DNA of 64,000 bases from a virus. The position numbers and the translations under genes are program-made. The stretch is taken from positions 86,763 to 150,762 of the IMG/VR virus record IMGVR_UViG_3300042453_005121; one strand, written 5' to 3'. How positions within the stretch are numbered: position 1 is the stretch's first letter; each line of letters begins with the position of its first letter. The notes beneath the pieces were generated by a model. It did no database searches and was not told the DNA's origin. It saw only the letters and a program-made list of their open reading frames with translations. Shown one piece after another: positions 26,073-32,821 of the stretch.

Positions 26073-26753
26073 TTAAATTCTTTCGTTTGAAAATTCCTGA
26101 GTGAAAAATTGCTCCACGAATGGAGTTATCGCAGACCTGTAATATATCTTGTCGAAATCAAATGGAATGTCGTCTCCGTAAATTTTTTTGACCCAAGGAG
26201 AAAGAAGCAGGTAGAAATATGATATTTCTCCGTTCGCACTCCACCTCTCAAGATTTTTTTTGTTCGCCGAGAAGGAATCGTAGTCCAATAAATTTTTGGA
26301 TTCCATGAAAAATCGTGTATTTTTGAGTTCAGTTATGACCTTTGATTCTTTGGTTGAAACTCCGATCTGATCAGATGTGAGAGCCTTGTTCAATTTCTTT
26401 CGGTACATTTTCTGCCATATTTTCCATCTCTTCCATGCCTTTTCGCCGACCAAGCAGTGGGGTTCTATCAACGCATGAATGTCTCCCTCTTTTATTGATT
26501 TCAATATTTGAATTTGCGACCGCACATATGTTCTGAGGTCCTTGTCTTCCAGAACTCCCTTCATTTCCCGGGCGAGTTTGTAGCAATATTTGAAAAGAGT
26601 TGATTTTCTAGGGTCGGTGTTTTTCTTGAGTTTCGCGAAAGATTCCTTTGGAATCTCTCTCCGACATTCTTCCTCCCAGATTATGGCGATCTTGAAGGCT
26701 TTCGCCTCCATATCGTTCATCTTGTATTTGATGATCGGTTCAAGTTCGCTCAT
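26073..26753 (-). CDS. Hypothetical protein; weak resemblance to T4 gp59 helicase loader
   Basis: 226 aa from MSELEP, basic and helical-looking. The gp59 resemblance is by eye only. Confidence 0.45.
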   Translation of the reverse strand: MSELEPIIKYKMNDMEAKAFKIAIIWEEECRREIPKESFAKLKKNTDPRKSTLFKYCYKLAREMKGVLEDKDLRTYVRSQIQILKSIKEGDIHALIEPHCLVGEKAWKRWKIWQKMYRKKLNKALTSDQIGVSTKESKVITELKNTRFFMESKNLLDYDSFSANKKNLERWSANGEISYFYLLLSPWVKKIYGDDIPFDFDKIYYRSAITPFVEQFFTQEFSNERI

Positions 26754-26762
26754 TTTCCCGTA

Positions 26763-26790
26763 TTGCAAAATGCTCATGTGTAGGTATGAT
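26763..26790 (+). promoter_or_regulatory. Sigma70-type promoter firing into the structured non-coding element
   Basis: TTGCAA-16 nt-TATGAT. Confidence 0.5.
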
Positions 26791-26864
26791 CTGTTTCCGG
26801 AAACTTGAACTAATATAACCTGAAACCTGAAAACGAACAACTGTAGAACATTTGCGGTGAGATG

Positions 26865-27180
26865 CTGCTTGATTTTTCGGGGGGACCCGAACCATGCCAG
26901 TTAGAAACTCCTGGTAGTCGTCCTAAGCGTTGTGTCGAGAGGCACATGAGGTAAACCAATAACAAAGGGCTGTATCAGTCTCGCGAAAGACTTTTTGGCT
27001 AGGCGAAAGCCGTGCGTTTTTCCCGTGAAACCCGACAGTAGTTTGATCTGTCAAGGGGCCTGGGTCACGGTCCATAATGGACAAAAAATCAATAAAGTCG
27101 TATAAGCGGATATGAAGGACGGGAAGTAGGCGGTCAAGCAGAAAAGACGGAATGTCCGAACTGAGGACTGAACTCGTCTG
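26865..27180 (+). ncRNA. Putative large structured non-coding RNA, family not recognised
   Basis: No ORF of 60 aa or more. Closing stem CTGCTTGA/TCAAGCAG. GNRA-capped hairpins TTCGGG-GGGA-CCCGAA, TGTGTC-GAGA-GGCACA and GGC-GAAA-GCC. Additional stems AGTCT/AGACT, CCGTGA/TCACGG, GACAG/CTGTC and GTCCA/TGGAC. Confidence 0.65.
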
Positions 27181-27189
27181 AGATTTTCG

Positions 27190-27254
27190 GTTATCTAGAG
27201 TATATTCTAGATAACTATAATCTTAAGATTAGTAGGGTCCAAAGGGAAGGACCC
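27190..27254. repeat. Cluster of inverted repeats/palindromes
   Basis: GTTATCTAGA-N6-TCTAGATAAC (27190-27215), TAATCTTAAGATTA (27218-27231), GGGTCC-N8-GGACCC (27235-27254). Confidence 0.85.
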
Positions 27255-27283
27255 CCTTCTATAAACACATAATTGGATAATGC

Positions 27284-27487
27284 ATGAACACAGATCATTT
27301 GGTCCCAAAAAGTCCTAGTAAAAGCAATAAAGATGGTAGAACTACCGACAAGAAACTCAAACGGTATCTCAGGAGGATATCCGATAGAAAAGGAATATCT
27401 TACAAGGAGGCAATTTTAAAGTTTTATGGGGTTGAATCATTGAAAAAACTAGATGAACGACTGGTTCATTCTCTTTTCAAAGATTGA
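27284..27487 (+). CDS. Small basic hypothetical protein
   Basis: 67 aa. The NTDHLVPKS start resembles an HNH fragment. Confidence 0.4.
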   Translation: MNTDHLVPKSPSKSNKDGRTTDKKLKRYLRRISDRKGISYKEAILKFYGVESLKKLDERLVHSLFKD

Positions 27488-27525
27488 GATGGATTGTTCT
27501 AGAAAAACATGTAGAATGATTTTCA

Positions 27526-28836
27526 ATGACCGATTTTGTTGAATTCCTGCCGCGTCTCAAGGGCAAGGACGTATACTTCAGCCTGAACAAGGAAAATCCG
27601 GACTGGAACGAGTCGGTTGGCGTTGAGCTTTCCTTTCGTCACGGCGGAGAGTCGCTGACGTTGTCCTTGGATGACGTGGATCAGTCTTCTTACCTCGCCT
27701 CTTCTCTTCATCATGTTCTGGACGGCGGAAACGCGCTGATCTCTTGGTGCGCCAAGGATGTTTTTTCTTTTTTGAAGGGCCGCACCGGAATCGGATTGGA
27801 GCTGAAAGGGAAAATTTATGATCTTTCCGTCATATCTTCGTATCTCGGAATGGAGGCGGACAAGCCAAAGACGTTCAGGGAGGCTGTTGCTCTCCTGAAG
27901 TCCTGTTTGTCCGATCCCGGCTGGGAGCAATTCAAGTCTTTTTATTTCGGAGTATATGAACCACTTTTTTCTGAGGTTCTTCCCGAAATAGAGACGTGCT
28001 GTCTCGTGGACAACAAGAGAAGGAGTTGCGTCTACGCCACCTACGTGATTGAAGGTCAGGTGAACGGAAGACTCAGGACCGTCAAGACAGGGCGGAATTC
28101 TTACAATCCTCATTCAATGGGTCCTGACGACAAGCGTGATATCAGGCCACAGGACTACGACGACGTTTTTTTGTATTTTGACTACCGAAACATGGAGGTC
28201 AACGTCCTTCAATGGCTGTCGGGAGACGGGGATTTGGCAAGAGTGCTGGAGTCCGGTTCTGATCCATACAAGGAGATATGGCGGATCATCACCCGGCAGG
28301 AGCCCACAGAAGGCCACAGAAAGATATGTAAGGACATATTCCTGCCCGTGGTATTCGGTCAAGGCAAATCTTCCTTGGCGGCCAAATTGAAAATTTCGGA
28401 AGAAATTGCTTCCAGACTCATACATAGCCTTGGTAAGACATTTCCCGTTGCCTTTGACTGGGTCAACTCCCAGTCAACCAATGGCAACAACACGGCGACT
28501 GACGCCTTCGGCCGCAAAAGGACTTTTGACGGCCGGGAGCAGTACAAAGTTAAAAACTTTTGTATCCAGTCCCCAGCGAGCATGATCTGTTTGAGAAAAC
28601 TTGTGCGTCTTCACGAGGCTCTGGCCTCTAGGGCGAGCATATGTTTTCACGTACATGATGGATATTACGTCCTTTGCAAGAAAAGCGAAATCAATTCAAT
28701 TGCGGAACTCGGAATCAGAACTCTCGAGGAGGACGATTCCATGTTTCCGGGTCTCGCAATGCGTGTCTCCTGCAGGGCGGGAGACAGGTTGGATGACATG
28801 CGTTCTATAACACTAACAAAAAGGGTTTCAATATGA
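27526..28836 (+). CDS. Minimal/degenerate family A DNA polymerase
   Basis: VNGRL, motif A FDYRNMEV, motif B RKICKDIFLPVVFG, NFCIQSPAS, motif C VHDG. Only 436 aa. Confidence 0.8.
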   Translation: MTDFVEFLPRLKGKDVYFSLNKENPDWNESVGVELSFRHGGESLTLSLDDVDQSSYLASSLHHVLDGGNALISWCAKDVFSFLKGRTGIGLELKGKIYDLSVISSYLGMEADKPKTFREAVALLKSCLSDPGWEQFKSFYFGVYEPLFSEVLPEIETCCLVDNKRRSCVYATYVIEGQVNGRLRTVKTGRNSYNPHSMGPDDKRDIRPQDYDDVFLYFDYRNMEVNVLQWLSGDGDLARVLESGSDPYKEIWRIITRQEPTEGHRKICKDIFLPVVFGQGKSSLAAKLKISEEIASRLIHSLGKTFPVAFDWVNSQSTNGNNTATDAFGRKRTFDGREQYKVKNFCIQSPASMICLRKLVRLHEALASRASICFHVHDGYYVLCKKSEINSIAELGIRTLEEDDSMFPGLAMRVSCRAGDRLDDMRSITLTKRVSI

Positions 28837-29387
28837 AGATACACGATTCTTTCCCCGTGACAGAGGAGGAGTACCTCCTTCTAGACAGCAAGTTCGGCGA
28901 ACTTTGCGAGTATCAGGCTTGGCAACTCATAAAGAAGAACACGAGAAACAACCACACCGACAATCAAGAGGACATAGCCCAGGACATGCGGATAGCTTTG
29001 TTGCGGGCGGCGTCCTACTACAAGCGGCAGTGCTACATAGAAGCCTGCATTGATTTGTGCAAGAAGCATGCGAAAGACCCAGTCATAAAGTCTGTTGTGA
29101 AGCAACTCGCCAACCTGTGGAAGAACAAGACCAGACACGGAGCCAATAAGCAGAAATTTGGACCTCACCAAGAAAAGATGCTTGACAAGATCGTGAGGGT
29201 TCTGCTTCCCATCAAGGAACGGCCCGACAAGAAGGCCTCGCTCAGGATAGACACCAAGTTCACGACTTATTGCAAGGCCATAACATGGAATGCGCAGAAG
29301 TCGCTCGGCAAGAGGATAACGAGGGAGAAGGGCATACGGACCGGAATGGTTTCTTTGTCCGAATATGATTATCTGGGCGGTAATTGA
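28833..29387 (+). CDS. Putative phage sigma-factor-like protein
   Basis: EDIAQDMRIALLRAA and KFTTYCKAITWNA resemble sigma70 regions 2.2 and 2.3. 184 aa. Confidence 0.45.
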   Translation: MKIHDSFPVTEEEYLLLDSKFGELCEYQAWQLIKKNTRNNHTDNQEDIAQDMRIALLRAASYYKRQCYIEACIDLCKKHAKDPVIKSVVKQLANLWKNKTRHGANKQKFGPHQEKMLDKIVRVLLPIKERPDKKASLRIDTKFTTYCKAITWNAQKSLGKRITREKGIRTGMVSLSEYDYLGGN

Positions 29388-29423: not shown

Positions 29424-29816
29424 ATGCAGAGACGGATTTTTTTGGTGGTCGGCGGAGTTTTGGCCGCCGAGTGCATTGCCGGTGAACCGACGAAGGCCAT
29501 TGCTTTGGATATTAATTCCTACGAGAGCGCAGTTAGATTTGCCAAGGATTCTGGCGGCCGGGCATATGTGCTCTTCGTCGGAAGCCGGTGCGATTGGTGC
29601 GAACGTCAGAAAGAGATTATGGAGGATAGTAGGGTCATAGACGCATTGAAGCCTTTCTTTGTCGCTTATGTGAATGTTTCGGAGAACAAGGATGTTTCAA
29701 GGTTTCATAAGGTGAGGGTGGTTCCCACGCATATGATTTTGGATCAGGAGGGCGAGGTCGTGAAAAGATTTCAAGGTTATCAGGACGCGAAAGAATTTTT
29801 GGAGTGGATCGGCTAA
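29424..29816 (+). CDS. Exported thioredoxin-fold protein
   Basis: CDWC active site, VVPT cis-Pro loop, RRIFL plus hydrophobic signal. AAGGAGG SD. Confidence 0.8.
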   Translation: MQRRIFLVVGGVLAAECIAGEPTKAIALDINSYESAVRFAKDSGGRAYVLFVGSRCDWCERQKEIMEDSRVIDALKPFFVAYVNVSENKDVSRFHKVRVVPTHMILDQEGEVVKRFQGYQDAKEFLEWIG

Positions 29817-30091
29817 TCCCAGTGTTCGTTTCCGTTTTCGTCAAAGTAATGCAGAATCCATCCGGAAGTTGAATAGTATTTTCTGTCAACCTTGATTTTG
29901 CCGCTGTGTATTTTTCTATGGCAACTTGAGCAAGCCACGACCGTGTTGAGTTCAACGTACTCGCCGCCTTGTTCTCCGGGGACGATCCGATGCACGTCCA
30001 GAGTGCAGTATTCATCCGTGCCGCAGAATTTGCACCTCTTGTCGGTCTTCTTCTTGTTTGCCTTGTTGATCAACTTTTTCTTTCTCGGCAT
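29813..30091 (-). CDS. HNH endonuclease-family protein
   Basis: CKFC...DVHRI.PG..GG...N...CSSCHRKIH. Confidence 0.75.
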   Translation of the reverse strand: MPRKKKLINKANKKKTDKRCKFCGTDEYCTLDVHRIVPGEQGGEYVELNTVVACSSCHRKIHSGKIKVDRKYYSTSGWILHYFDENGNEHWD

Positions 30092-30151
30092 CCAATAAAC
30101 TAGCGTTGTCTTCATAATAAGAATATTGTATATTGAACCGGGAGCCATAAC

Positions 30152-31186
30152 ATGAGAATTGAAAACGACATAAAACTTGACTATTCCGACGTGCTCATAT
30201 GTCCCAAGCGATCCGAGTCGCCAAGTCGCAGGAATGTGGTTCTAGAGCGAAGGTTCAAATTTTTGAATTCGCGTGCGGAGTGGGAGGGGGTTCCCATTGT
30301 CGCGGCCAATATGGCGAACGTGGGCACATTTGGAATGGCCAAGGCCCTCGCGGGATTCAATATGCCGGCTTGTCTTCACAAGCATTATGAAATTGATCGT
30401 TTGGTTAAATTTTTTTCCGAAAACACTGCCTTTTATGCGATGGGCATCAAGGATGAAGATTTGACAAAGTTTCATGAATTTGTCAGATCGTTCGGACGTA
30501 ATCCGGATATGATATGTCTTGATGTGGCAAACGGATACACGAGGCATTTCGTGGATCACTGCAAGAAAATCAGAGACAAATGTCCCGGATCAATATTGAT
30601 GGCCGGGAATGTCTGTACCCCCGAGATGGTCCAAGAACTTCTTCTTGCTGGCGGCGTGGATATTGTGAAGATAGGCATAGGTCCGGGATCGGCGTGTACG
30701 ACAAGAGTTGTCACGGGCGTAGGATTCCCGCAATTTTCTAGCACGATAGAGTGTTCGGATGCCGCCCACGGTCTCAAGGGTCATATAGTAGCCGACGGTG
30801 GCTGCACGACTCCTGGAGACGTCGCCAAGGCCTTCGGTGCGGGGGCTGATTTTGTTATGCTCGGAGGCATGTTTGCCGGTCACGATGAATGTGAGGCGGA
30901 TTGGGAGTATGATTCTGCCGGAGAAAAAACATTCATGCGGTTCTACGGAATGAGCAGCAGGGAAGCCATGGAGAAATTCAATGGGGGCGTTGCCGGATAC
31001 CGGGCTGCCGAAGGCAGGTCTGCCAAGGTTCCGTATCGCGGACCTGTGGAGTCTACGGTTCAAGAAATACTCGGAGGTCTGAGGAGTGCCTGTACTTACG
31101 TGGGTACTGAAAGCCTCAAGGACTTCAGCAAGTGCTGCAAATTCGTCAGGGTCAACAACACTCACAACAGAATATTTGAGAACTGA
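30152..31186 (+). CDS. guaC: GMP reductase
   Basis: MRIENDIKLDYSDVL, DVANGY, GIGPGSACTTR, ADGG, FYGMSS. No CBS domains. Confidence 0.93.
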   Translation: MRIENDIKLDYSDVLICPKRSESPSRRNVVLERRFKFLNSRAEWEGVPIVAANMANVGTFGMAKALAGFNMPACLHKHYEIDRLVKFFSENTAFYAMGIKDEDLTKFHEFVRSFGRNPDMICLDVANGYTRHFVDHCKKIRDKCPGSILMAGNVCTPEMVQELLLAGGVDIVKIGIGPGSACTTRVVTGVGFPQFSSTIECSDAAHGLKGHIVADGGCTTPGDVAKAFGAGADFVMLGGMFAGHDECEADWEYDSAGEKTFMRFYGMSSREAMEKFNGGVAGYRAAEGRSAKVPYRGPVESTVQEILGGLRSACTYVGTESLKDFSKCCKFVRVNNTHNRIFEN

Positions 31187-31213: not shown

Positions 31214-32821
31214 ATGGAAGAAATTGAAATTGAAGAGGGCGATCTTACTCCCGAAGAGCGGTCTGAACTGGACAGGCTCACCAAGGAGGCCGAGTCCTCC
31301 GAGAAGTACAAGTGGGATGAGGAGTTCCAGCGCACCATAGTTGGACTTCTGCTGAATGACAGGTGGTTTGCGACCCAGTGCAGGGACCTCATCCTGCCTT
31401 CTTATTTTCTTGATGAGCGACACCAGATCGTGTGCAAGGTTCTGTTTGACCACATGGAGTCCTACAACACGATCCCGACCCGCGTGCAGGTGATGCAGGG
31501 CGTTAAGGACAGGGTGTCCCACAAGAGCGACAATGTAATTTTGGAGTACGTGGCCGAGGCCGAACTGATATATAAGAAATTTGTGCCGGGCCTCGACAGT
31601 CGAGAGTATTTTCTGGACAAGATCGTCAACTTCGCAAAGTTGATGGGACTCAAGACCGCGTTTGATCAGTCGCTCGGCCTCATAAAGCGCGATCCCGAGA
31701 GCGAGTCGACCTGGACCAAGATACAAGACATCCTGAAGACGGCCTTGCTAGTTGATCGCAATTTTGAGGAGGGGTTGAATTACTTTGACACCTTTGAAGA
31801 GCGGTATGCGAGGATGCAGCAGGAGGAGCAGGCGAGGGAGAGGTTCACCAGTGGATTTGAGGCCATAGACGACGCTCTCCTCGGGGGAGGATGCCACAGG
31901 GGCGAGATATATTCATGGATAGGACTCAGTGGCAGCGGCAAGTCGCTTGCTCTCGTGGGGGCCGCCCTCAAGAACGTGACTCAACTCGGAAAGAAGGTTC
32001 TTTATATATCCTTGGAGATGGGTGAGGATTCCATAGCCGAGAGATTTGACGCTCAGATCGCGGGTGTGGACATCAATAAACTTCAGGAGATGAAGGATAG
32101 GGTCAAGGCGGCATTTGATGATTTTACCCATGACAAAGACGACCGCAGGATGCTCGTCATCAAGCAGTTCCCTGCGGGAAGCATGACTGTGGCCACCCTC
32201 AAAGCCTACATGCAGCAACTTCAGATGATGGGCTTCACGCCCGACTTGCTCGTCATAGACTACATCGGTGAAATGAAAGATTATCCGGGCATCCCCACGT
32301 ACGAGTCCAGATATAGGATTGTGCGAGATTTAAGAGGCTTGGCGACCGAAGACAATATCTGCATATTCACGGCCATGCAGCCCAACAAGGACGCGAGAGA
32401 GGCGCAGAAGAAGGACGGCTTGGGTGACGGCGTCATAGACGACACAAATCTCGCCGACTCCTACGGCCAGATCAGGCCCTTGGACGGGTGTTGGAGCATC
32501 AACCAGATGCAGGCCGAGAAGGAGGCCGGCATCGCGAGAATATTCGTGATCAAGCACCGTCACGGAAAGAGCAGGTTTACCTGTTGGGCGAGGTTCAACA
32601 AAGAAACCCTGCAGATGAAGCAGATCAGCGAGTTGGAATACAACAAAATATGGCGTGAATACTCTTTCAAGAAGACCGACAGGGCTGCCGACGTAGACGC
32701 CCAAGCGGACATGCTCGCTGCCAAATTGAAGAAGAGCAAGAAAAAATTCAGCGATGACATGGGATACGACGATCCCGATTCGCCCGACGTACAACCAACC
32801 TTGGAGAATAATGATGAATGA
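31214..32821 (+). CDS. Replicative DnaB-like helicase (T4 gp41-like)
   Basis: GLSGSGKS, YISLEM, IDY, TAMQ, KHRHG. Confidence 0.9.
   Translation: MEEIEIEEGDLTPEERSELDRLTKEAESSEKYKWDEEFQRTIVGLLLNDRWFATQCRDLILPSYFLDERHQIVCKVLFDHMESYNTIPTRVQVMQGVKDRVSHKSDNVILEYVAEAELIYKKFVPGLDSREYFLDKIVNFAKLMGLKTAFDQSLGLIKRDPESESTWTKIQDILKTALLVDRNFEEGLNYFDTFEERYARMQQEEQARERFTSGFEAIDDALLGGGCHRGEIYSWIGLSGSGKSLALVGAALKNVTQLGKKVLYISLEMGEDSIAERFDAQIAGVDINKLQEMKDRVKAAFDDFTHDKDDRRMLVIKQFPAGSMTVATLKAYMQQLQMMGFTPDLLVIDYIGEMKDYPGIPTYESRYRIVRDLRGLATEDNICIFTAMQPNKDAREAQKKDGLGDGVIDDTNLADSYGQIRPLDGCWSINQMQAEKEAGIARIFVIKHRHGKSRFTCWARFNKETLQMKQISELEYNKIWREYSFKKTDRAADVDAQADMLAAKLKKSKKKFSDDMGYDDPDSPDVQPTLENNDE

Follow-up and report, generated by a model that had tools for sequence, protein, structure and literature searches.

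We know of very few classes of natural RNA that exceed 400 nucleotides (nt) and adopt complex pseudoknotted folds. The characterised large RNAs (ribosomal RNA, RNase P, group I and group II introns) all carry out sophisticated biochemistry; OLE, ROOL and GOLLD are unexplained. Much smaller are the nut and put RNAs of phages such as lambda and HK022, cis-acting antitermination elements of 50-70 nt that lie just downstream of early promoters. Here we describe an RNA of ~465 nt at positions 26797-27260 (+) of a 64-kb stretch of viral DNA (hereafter the window) located at the end of a 150,762-bp IMG/VR record (IMGVR_UViG_3300042453_005121). The element is situated between a divergent gene and a replication operon that codes, among others, for a compact family-A DNA polymerase (PolA). 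From the comparison of homologues it is close to certain that it represents a new, selected and pseudoknotted RNA.

Like ROOL (RF03087) and GOLLD (RF01998), this RNA is phage-borne, several hundred nt long and rich in helices and junctions, contains a pseudoknot, was found comparatively and has no assigned function. Unlike them, it is always located directly upstream of one and the same operon, on the same strand, and it is so far known only from a single lineage of huge freshwater phages; it matches neither of the two in sequence or structure, and a scan of one genome per species for 185,579 prokaryote species did not reveal its core motif. With lambda nutL-N and HK022 put it may be compared by analogy, as it combines an early sigma70 promoter, a structured RNA with GNRA-type hairpins, a gene for a small arginine-rich protein and a long operon. 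In contrast to these systems, it spans ~465 nt and includes a pseudoknot, no boxA or boxB could be recognised, and the small protein (67 amino acids, aa) has no detectable relation to N. The operators of T4 genes 43 and 32 are likewise structured leaders in front of replication genes, with a pseudoknot in the case of gene 32, and an autoregulation following the same logic would be plausible here. These operators, however, are shorter than 100 nt and overlap the ribosome-binding site (RBS), whereas the first open reading frame (ORF) of our operon encodes only 67 aa and no conserved overlap with its RBS was seen. Finally, a promoter-driven RNA beside a family-A polymerase gene brings to mind ColE1 RNA II/Pol I and the T4 origins oriF and oriG.

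Conservation and covariation of the RNA

The RNA is embedded in the intergenic region 26754-27283. The left border of this region is given by the divergent gene, the start of which was set at ATG 26753 in line with its 158 homologues; these are ~226 aa long and begin there. An earlier note on this DNA, made from its letters alone, had pointed to the gap as the largest ORF-free stretch of the window, and it ranks first even over the whole 150.8-kb contig. The structural elements named in that note can all be located, i.e. the closing helix formed by CTGCTTGA (26865-72) and TCAAGCAG (27134-41), the GNRA loops GGGA (26882-85), GAGA (26937-40) and GAAA (27005-08), and the stems CGTCCT/AGGACG, CCGTG/CACGG, GACAG/CTGTC and GTCCA/TGGAC. 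All but one of its stems are conserved with compensatory changes. The exception is the alternative pairing TTCCCGT/ACGGGAA, which is not conserved in the homologue alignments A4 and A5 (read by eye) and was rejected, as was the alternative pairing TTGATTTTT/AAAAATCAA, which is not conserved in these alignments either.

Folding of the single sequence was compared with shuffled controls. The + strand reached z = -2.0, a slight margin since 4 of 100 shuffles were equally good; the core only gave z = -1.8 and the - strand z = -1.2. Taken alone, the sequence is weak and indecisive evidence for a structured RNA, and the case rests on comparison. To collect homologues, PolA was used in a protein search and the metagenomes of IMG/VR and JGI were scanned with DNA patterns, which yielded 10 distinct RNA copies. 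In all, at least 176 PolA homologues have an E-value of 0.001 or lower. Eight further PolA homologues (43-79% identity) were examined, and the RNA was present on every contig that encodes one of them. A covariance model of the central domain of the RNA (model R1, 26978-27111) matches once per locus in 17 of 17 loci, with 54-149 bits and always on the strand of PolA, which is 43-79% identical among these loci. The 150-kb contig itself carries one RNA copy only. On three contigs with more distant polymerases (L003-L005, PolA at most 34% identical) R1 found no match.

Covariation was assessed against 500 shuffles and against slid alignments. In the alignment of the central domain, which is itself fitted to R1, 96.8% of the cells form a standard pair, compared with 78.6% after shuffling. 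Compensatory changes occur in 22 of the 35 pairs (113 cells), the shuffled mean being 15.1, and none of the 500 shuffles reached 22. The covariation score amounts to 0.537, as against 0.189 for shuffled and at most 0.133 for slid alignments. MAFFT alignments that had not been fitted to the model also contain compensatory changes, in 22 of 57 and in 10 of 21 pairs, with helices P3, P4, P5 and P5a included. The helices thus show compensatory changes above the controls, as demanded of a selected structured RNA. Furthermore, ~45 nt of the core are invariant although PolA identity falls to 43%; invariance of this kind is typical of a binding pocket and may well mark one here. When the full-length sequences are folded, 15 of 16 homologues favour the + strand over the - strand, with a mean advantage of 12.5 kcal/mol, and the GNRA loops and G-U pairs are compatible with the + strand only. 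In view of this strand preference and of the G-U pairs in the hairpins, the AT-rich 'palindromes' of the region are to be regarded as RNA features.

Known RNA families do not account for the element. Rfam 15 gave no match in the whole window at the gathering threshold (RNase P, tmRNA, group I and II introns, 6S, SRP, riboswitches, ROOL, GOLLD and HEARO included) and none in 26650-27600 even at E ≤ 10, and ARAGORN detected no tRNA or tmRNA. Together with the strong conservation and covariation upstream of the PolA homologues examined, this bears out the proposal of the earlier note that we are dealing with a new structured non-coding RNA, different from tmRNA, RNase P and introns. A blastn search against 50,697 GenBank phage records returned no matching sequence. 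In a full-text literature search no account of such an RNA was found, and a survey of IMG/VR with over 10,000 candidates for structured RNAs, its supplementary catalogue aside, does not mention a polymerase-linked RNA. The phage that carries the element must be large, as CheckV estimates the completeness of the 150,762-bp record at 28%, which corresponds to roughly half a megabase. Contigs with relatives of the flanking proteins reach 363 kb (PolA search) and 634 kb (left-protein search). Judged from the records rather than from sample metadata, the relatives in IMG/VR and JGI look like lake-derived phages.

Architecture of the RNA and the pseudoknot PK1

The predicted transcript starts with a 5' leader (26797-26864, +) that is rich in A and C and poor in G (A 41%, C 22%, G 14.5%, compared with 28% G in the core). 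It carries the motifs ATAACCT, GAAAC and CAAC (alignment A4) and is predicted to be unstructured; pairings with the loops of P3 or P9c were considered and rejected, as no covariation was seen by eye. The leader is followed by the core (26865-27141, +), for which the minimum free energy (MFE) fold and independent folds of 17 homologues predict the same architecture. It comprises at least 12 helices arranged around a four-way junction, a three-way junction and a second four-way junction.

The core is closed by P1 (26865-74/27132-41), whose variants are complementary in each lineage. P1 closes the first four-way junction together with the hairpins P2 (GGGA loop at 26882) and P3 (26895-900/26911-16) and the helix P4 (26918-24/27116-22). 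P4, too, has a complementary variant in each lineage and occurs in at least six versions, namely CGUCC/GGACG, GUUCC/GGAAC, CCCU/AGGG, AGUCC/GGACU, GACAC/GUGUC and GUUUCU/AGAAAC. It leads into the three-way junction of P5 (26926-28/26969-71), which bears the hairpin P5a (GAGA loop at 26937), and P6 (26978-84/27106-11), the first helix of the central domain (P6-P10). In the MFE folds P6 is stacked on P7 (26989-97/27090-99) across a conserved internal loop, and P7 closes the second four-way junction with P8, P9 and P10. The P8 hairpin (26998-27004/27009-15) is capped by GAAA here and usually by a GNRA loop in the homologues. P9 consists of the segments P9a (27023-27/27066-70), P9b (27030-33/27062-65) and P9c (27034-38/27048-52); P9a is invariant within the main clade and reads CCAUG/CAUGG in the distant clade. 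P10 is formed by 27071-74 and 27078-81. The invariant sequence inside the central domain is CCGTGxAACCCGA...TAGT...GGGCCTGGGTCACGGTCC. Downstream of the core, a linker (27142-27235, +) contains the long hairpin P11 (arms 27190-99/27206-15), the sequence of which differs in every lineage; in all 13 main-clade members this position is occupied by a hairpin of 11-15 bp with G-U pairs, built from unrelated sequences. An automatic scan for more long-range helices returned mostly noise from U-runs and G-runs.

The 3' end of the RNA is defined by a long-range interaction, which we named PK1. Its 5' strand, GGGGCCT (27055-27061, +), is located in the internal loop of P9. The partner belongs to a 3' element (27243-27255, +) composed of AGGGA (27243-47), which is present in 16 of 16 full-length homologues, and the PK1 3' strand AGG-A-CCCC (27248-55) directly after it. 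The two strands, 150-185 nt apart, have changed in concert: GGGGCCU pairs with AGGCCCC in most of the main clade and GGGCCU with AGGCCC in L002, L012 and L029, and the corresponding pairs are GGGCCGUA/UACGGCCC in L025, GGGGCGUA/UACGCCCC in L026 and AGGGUAUA/UAUACCCU in L027. In a cross-pairing matrix the cognate partners were best, with a mean of -14.1 kcal/mol as against -5.8 ± 2.5 kcal/mol for shuffled tails. Since PK1 joins the core to the downstream 3' element, the RNA extends to ~27260 and has a total length of ~465 nt. Its 3' end thus lies ~25 nt upstream of the small basic ORF, and in every locus a distance of 20-45 nt separates the end of the PK1 3' strand from the start of this ORF. 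A local hairpin, GGGTCC/GGACCC (27235-40/27249-54), makes use of the PK1 3' strand as well. The same sequence, GGGTCC-N8-GGACCC, was considered as a terminator and rejected, because the U-tract is not conserved and covariation links the 3' arm to the distant core.

A core that is invariant, sits at a four-way junction and is held by a pseudoknot might also be expected of a ribozyme, perhaps one that would process the transcript it belongs to. Yet no self-cleaving or intron family of Rfam is matched and no conserved site resembles a cleavage junction, so that we consider catalysis very improbable.

Transcription signals and possible roles

The sigma70-type promoter that the earlier note had placed before the gap was found by a consensus scan (cut-off 9 of 12 positions) as TTGCAA-16-TATGAT at 26763-26790 (+), with a predicted RNA start at ~26797. 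Most main-clade relatives have TTGC[AC]N-16/17-TATG[AT]T at 248-275 nt upstream of the CCGTG core motif, and in the distant clade TTGACT-16-TA[GC]AAT takes the equivalent place. On the minus strand, the scan indicated a candidate promoter for the divergent left gene, TTGTTC-17-TATATT (26812-26840). At the same place in relatives there is TTGAAA-17-TATGAT (L001, L014, L018 and L021), TTGAAG-17-TATAGT (L009) or TTGAAA-17-TAGGTT (L012). L010 has TTGAAG-17-TATAGT there by eye, the top minus-strand match of the scan for this locus being elsewhere. The conserved leader motifs (ATAACC..., ...CAAC) are the reverse complement of this minus-strand sigma70-type promoter, with which they coincide and which would explain them. 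It is directed away from the body of the RNA (26840>26812). Other minus-strand promoter-like sites within the RNA (27241>27214 and 27226>27199) fall into the variable P11 region and lack conservation.

The promoters at 26763-90 (+) and 26840-12 (-) face each other, and their predicted starts would be ~9 nt apart. Such a face-to-face arrangement of the promoters for the RNA with the replication operon and for the 226-aa gene suggests mutual interference, i.e. a switch. Elsewhere in the window there is another strong promoter, TTGACT-17-TATAAC (35853-81); downstream of it and just upstream of a gene start lies CTTGAACTTGAGATAACCT (35907-25), a sequence that closely resembles CTTGAACTAATATAACCT of the leader.

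On the basis of its position and orientation, the lack of an intervening terminator or second promoter, and its pocket-like invariant core, we propose that the RNA is the cis-acting 5' untranslated leader of the replication operon, and we would put the probability of this reading at roughly 0.45. The argument for a leader is that no conserved terminator or second promoter separates the RNA from the operon genes: the 3' element is followed by no conserved U-tract (tails include CGGUUUAC, GGUACGUA and AGGAUCCG), and no promoter above the cut-off lies between the RNA and the small ORF. The promoter is kept at a fixed distance from the core, and the order of RNA, small ORF, PolA and 184-aa gene is constant in all loci. 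According to this proposal, host RNA polymerase would transcribe the RNA from the promoter at 26763-26790, and the RNA would head a single transcript for the small basic protein, PolA, the 184-aa protein, a thioredoxin-like protein, GMP reductase and DnaB. The folded, pseudoknotted core would serve as a sensor or binding platform, either for a product of the operon, with the 67-aa arginine-rich protein as first candidate, or for a small metabolite. The state of the core would then set the read-through of the polymerase or the lifetime of the message. The mechanism would have its analogues in lambda nutL-N, HK022 put and the operators of T4 genes 32 and 43, albeit in a much larger format.

Several points weigh against a cis-acting leader. 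To our knowledge, 465 nt far exceeds the size of any known riboswitch or protein-binding leader. A conserved expression platform, be it an intrinsic terminator or a pairing that hides the RBS, was not found in the alignments read by eye. Sequestration of the small-ORF RBS was rejected, as the pairing CCUUUU/GAAAGG occurs in the L014 clade only and none is common to the lineages. The 67-aa protein belongs to no RNA-binding family that sequence searches of Pfam and the PDB would recognise. Moreover, both flanks are syntenic in all relatives, and the constant place before PolA alone cannot separate an action in cis from one in trans.

A stable, trans-acting large RNA or ribonucleoprotein like ROOL, GOLLD, OLE or raiA, sharing the promoter with the operon and freed from the transcript by processing, is also to be considered. 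The size of the RNA, its number of junctions and the closing pseudoknot fit such 'ornate' RNAs better than leaders, it is present in a single copy per genome, and the strongly conserved 184-aa neighbour could be its fixed partner. Against this, at the 3' end we recognised neither a terminator nor a processing signal that is conserved, the RNA is always tied to one downstream gene, unlike ROOL and GOLLD, and the Rfam models of those families are not matched. We thus regard a trans-acting RNA as possible but rather doubtful.

The earlier note had put forward an RNA-primed replication origin as one of two readings, the other being a new non-coding RNA that partners the polymerase. In such a scenario the transcript would persist as a hybrid and prime leading-strand synthesis by PolA, in the manner of ColE1 RNA II/Pol I or of the T4 R-loops. 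Indeed, where the genes diverge, a promoter-driven folded RNA heads a replication module with PolA and DnaB, and the stretch after the core is AT-rich (GC 0.23-0.46). The cumulative GC skew, however, rises almost monotonically from a minimum at 11 kb to a maximum at 149 kb of the contig, which represents an estimated 28% of the genome, and does not turn at the locus (113.6 kb). The strand switch on which the note had relied is real locally, but the contig as a whole has ~60 strand blocks, and the local GC skew tracks gene strand. Iterons are absent from the locus, where we found only two-copy repeats of 10-13 nt at chance level. The AT-rich inverted repeats have the properties of RNA hairpins on the + strand, the last 'palindrome' being a pseudoknot strand. 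In further contrast to ColE1 RNA II and oriF/oriG, no conserved antisense partner or regulator was seen, and selection acts at the RNA rather than the DNA level over the whole element; R-loop origins are not known to need a conserved multi-junction fold. Nothing that was tested spoke in favour of a replication origin at this site, and we judge a primer function improbable.

Neighbouring genes and significance

Coming back to the proposed leader of the replication operon, the gene order at all loci is the left gene (216-235 aa, -), the RNA, the small ORF, PolA and a gene for 184-188 aa. GMP reductase and DnaB genes come next in most loci, with thioredoxin-like and HNH genes sometimes intervening.

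The small basic protein of 67 aa (27284-27487, +) has the motif K-LRRN[LI][RK]R[LI][AS]ERKGI[ST]Y-EAI-KFY; nine further loci drawn from all clades were aligned, and each of them encodes it (alignment A11). Sequence searches of Pfam and the PDB gave no match for it, and they supported neither a ribbon-helix-helix repressor nor an arginine-rich RNA-binding peptide.

The 436-aa PolA (27526-28836, +) had been named in the earlier note, and its Pfam match, catalytic aspartates and fold identify it as a genuine compact family-A enzyme. Residues 206-421 match DNA_pol_A (7.7e-22), and the sequence aligns to residues 606-808 of Taq with the DYxxxE and HD motifs. All 41 homologues compared share the aspartates of motifs A and C (D219 and D378). 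The AlphaFold2 (AF2) model, with a predicted local distance difference test (pLDDT) score of 92.6, superposes entirely on the large fragments KlenTaq and Bst, with template modelling (TM) scores of 0.75-0.80 by query length. As regards proofreading by a 3'-5' exonuclease (DEDD) domain, the N-terminus has an exonuclease-like fold in the model, but D99 is the sole invariant acidic residue among the first 110 positions. A ~700-nt gap with several UUCG-capped hairpins also precedes the PolA gene on a 343-kb contig (L003:3190-3930, PolA 34% identical); it was rejected as a homologous RNA, since R1 does not match it and its fold (z = -0.9) is no better than that of shuffles.

By analogy with systems of reverse transcriptases and non-coding RNAs, the RNA might be a cofactor of this polymerase, i.e. 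a template, a protein-free primer or a scaffold. The linkage to the PolA lineage in 17 of 17 loci examined and the short AACCT-type repeats in the leader would agree with such a role. Judged from its model, however, the polymerase has the usual fold of a compact Klenow-like enzyme and lacks any additional domain. As to the leader repeats, they coincide with the minus-strand promoter and are missing from the distant clade, and the contig shows no enrichment of ATAACCT (20 copies against an estimated ~18 expected). We hold a cofactor role to be highly unlikely.

The 184-aa protein (28833-29387, +) is the most conserved gene product of the locus, with 80-93% identity across the family (alignment A12) as against 43-79% for PolA. 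For the sigma-like nature suggested in the earlier note there are hints below threshold: four of 10 members match Sigma70_r2 at E = 0.1, with 12.8 bits where the cut-off is 24, and region 4 is unmatched; Sigma70_r2 is also the nearest named atlas cluster (0.94), which we take as a lead only. Conceivably, the RNA could form a ribonucleoprotein with PolA, the 184-aa protein or the small basic protein that starts or licenses DNA synthesis, through priming or through recruitment of polymerase and helicase, and does not merely tune expression; we regard this as unlikely.

The divergent left gene (26073-26753, -) encodes a 226-aa all-helical protein (AF2 pLDDT 87.5), and none of its 158 homologues has a Pfam domain. 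The protein has no match in Pfam, PHROG or NCBIfam, its best Foldseek hit has an E-value of ~1, and the highest VIA-align Z scores, obtained with AAA+ lid domains, do not exceed 6, a value within the noise for helical proteins. No significant fold or family match supports the gp59-like loader that the earlier note had considered possible.

Further genes of the region were noted. Two genes past the polymerase, a thioredoxin-like gene (29424-29816) matches TIGR01068 below its cut-off (2.9e-05); in the T7 DNA polymerase, host thioredoxin is the processivity factor. An HNH gene (29813-30148) is encoded on the opposite strand. GMP reductase (30152-31186; NF003470, 9.6e-148) directly precedes the DnaB-type helicase (31214-32821) in the same operon. 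In another locus (L024:1-472), an IS605 OrfB/TnpB (Cas12f-like) gene is located two genes to the left of the RNA.

The RNA is unusually tractable, as it has a defined promoter, a 3' boundary set by PK1 and ~45 invariant nt that mark the likely pocket. Its fixed neighbours, the small basic protein, the 436-aa polymerase and the 184-aa protein, represent testable partners. Should the RNA indeed govern the replication operon, no larger cis-acting control RNA would be known from a phage; should it act in trans, it would be a replication-linked addition to the large ornate RNAs.

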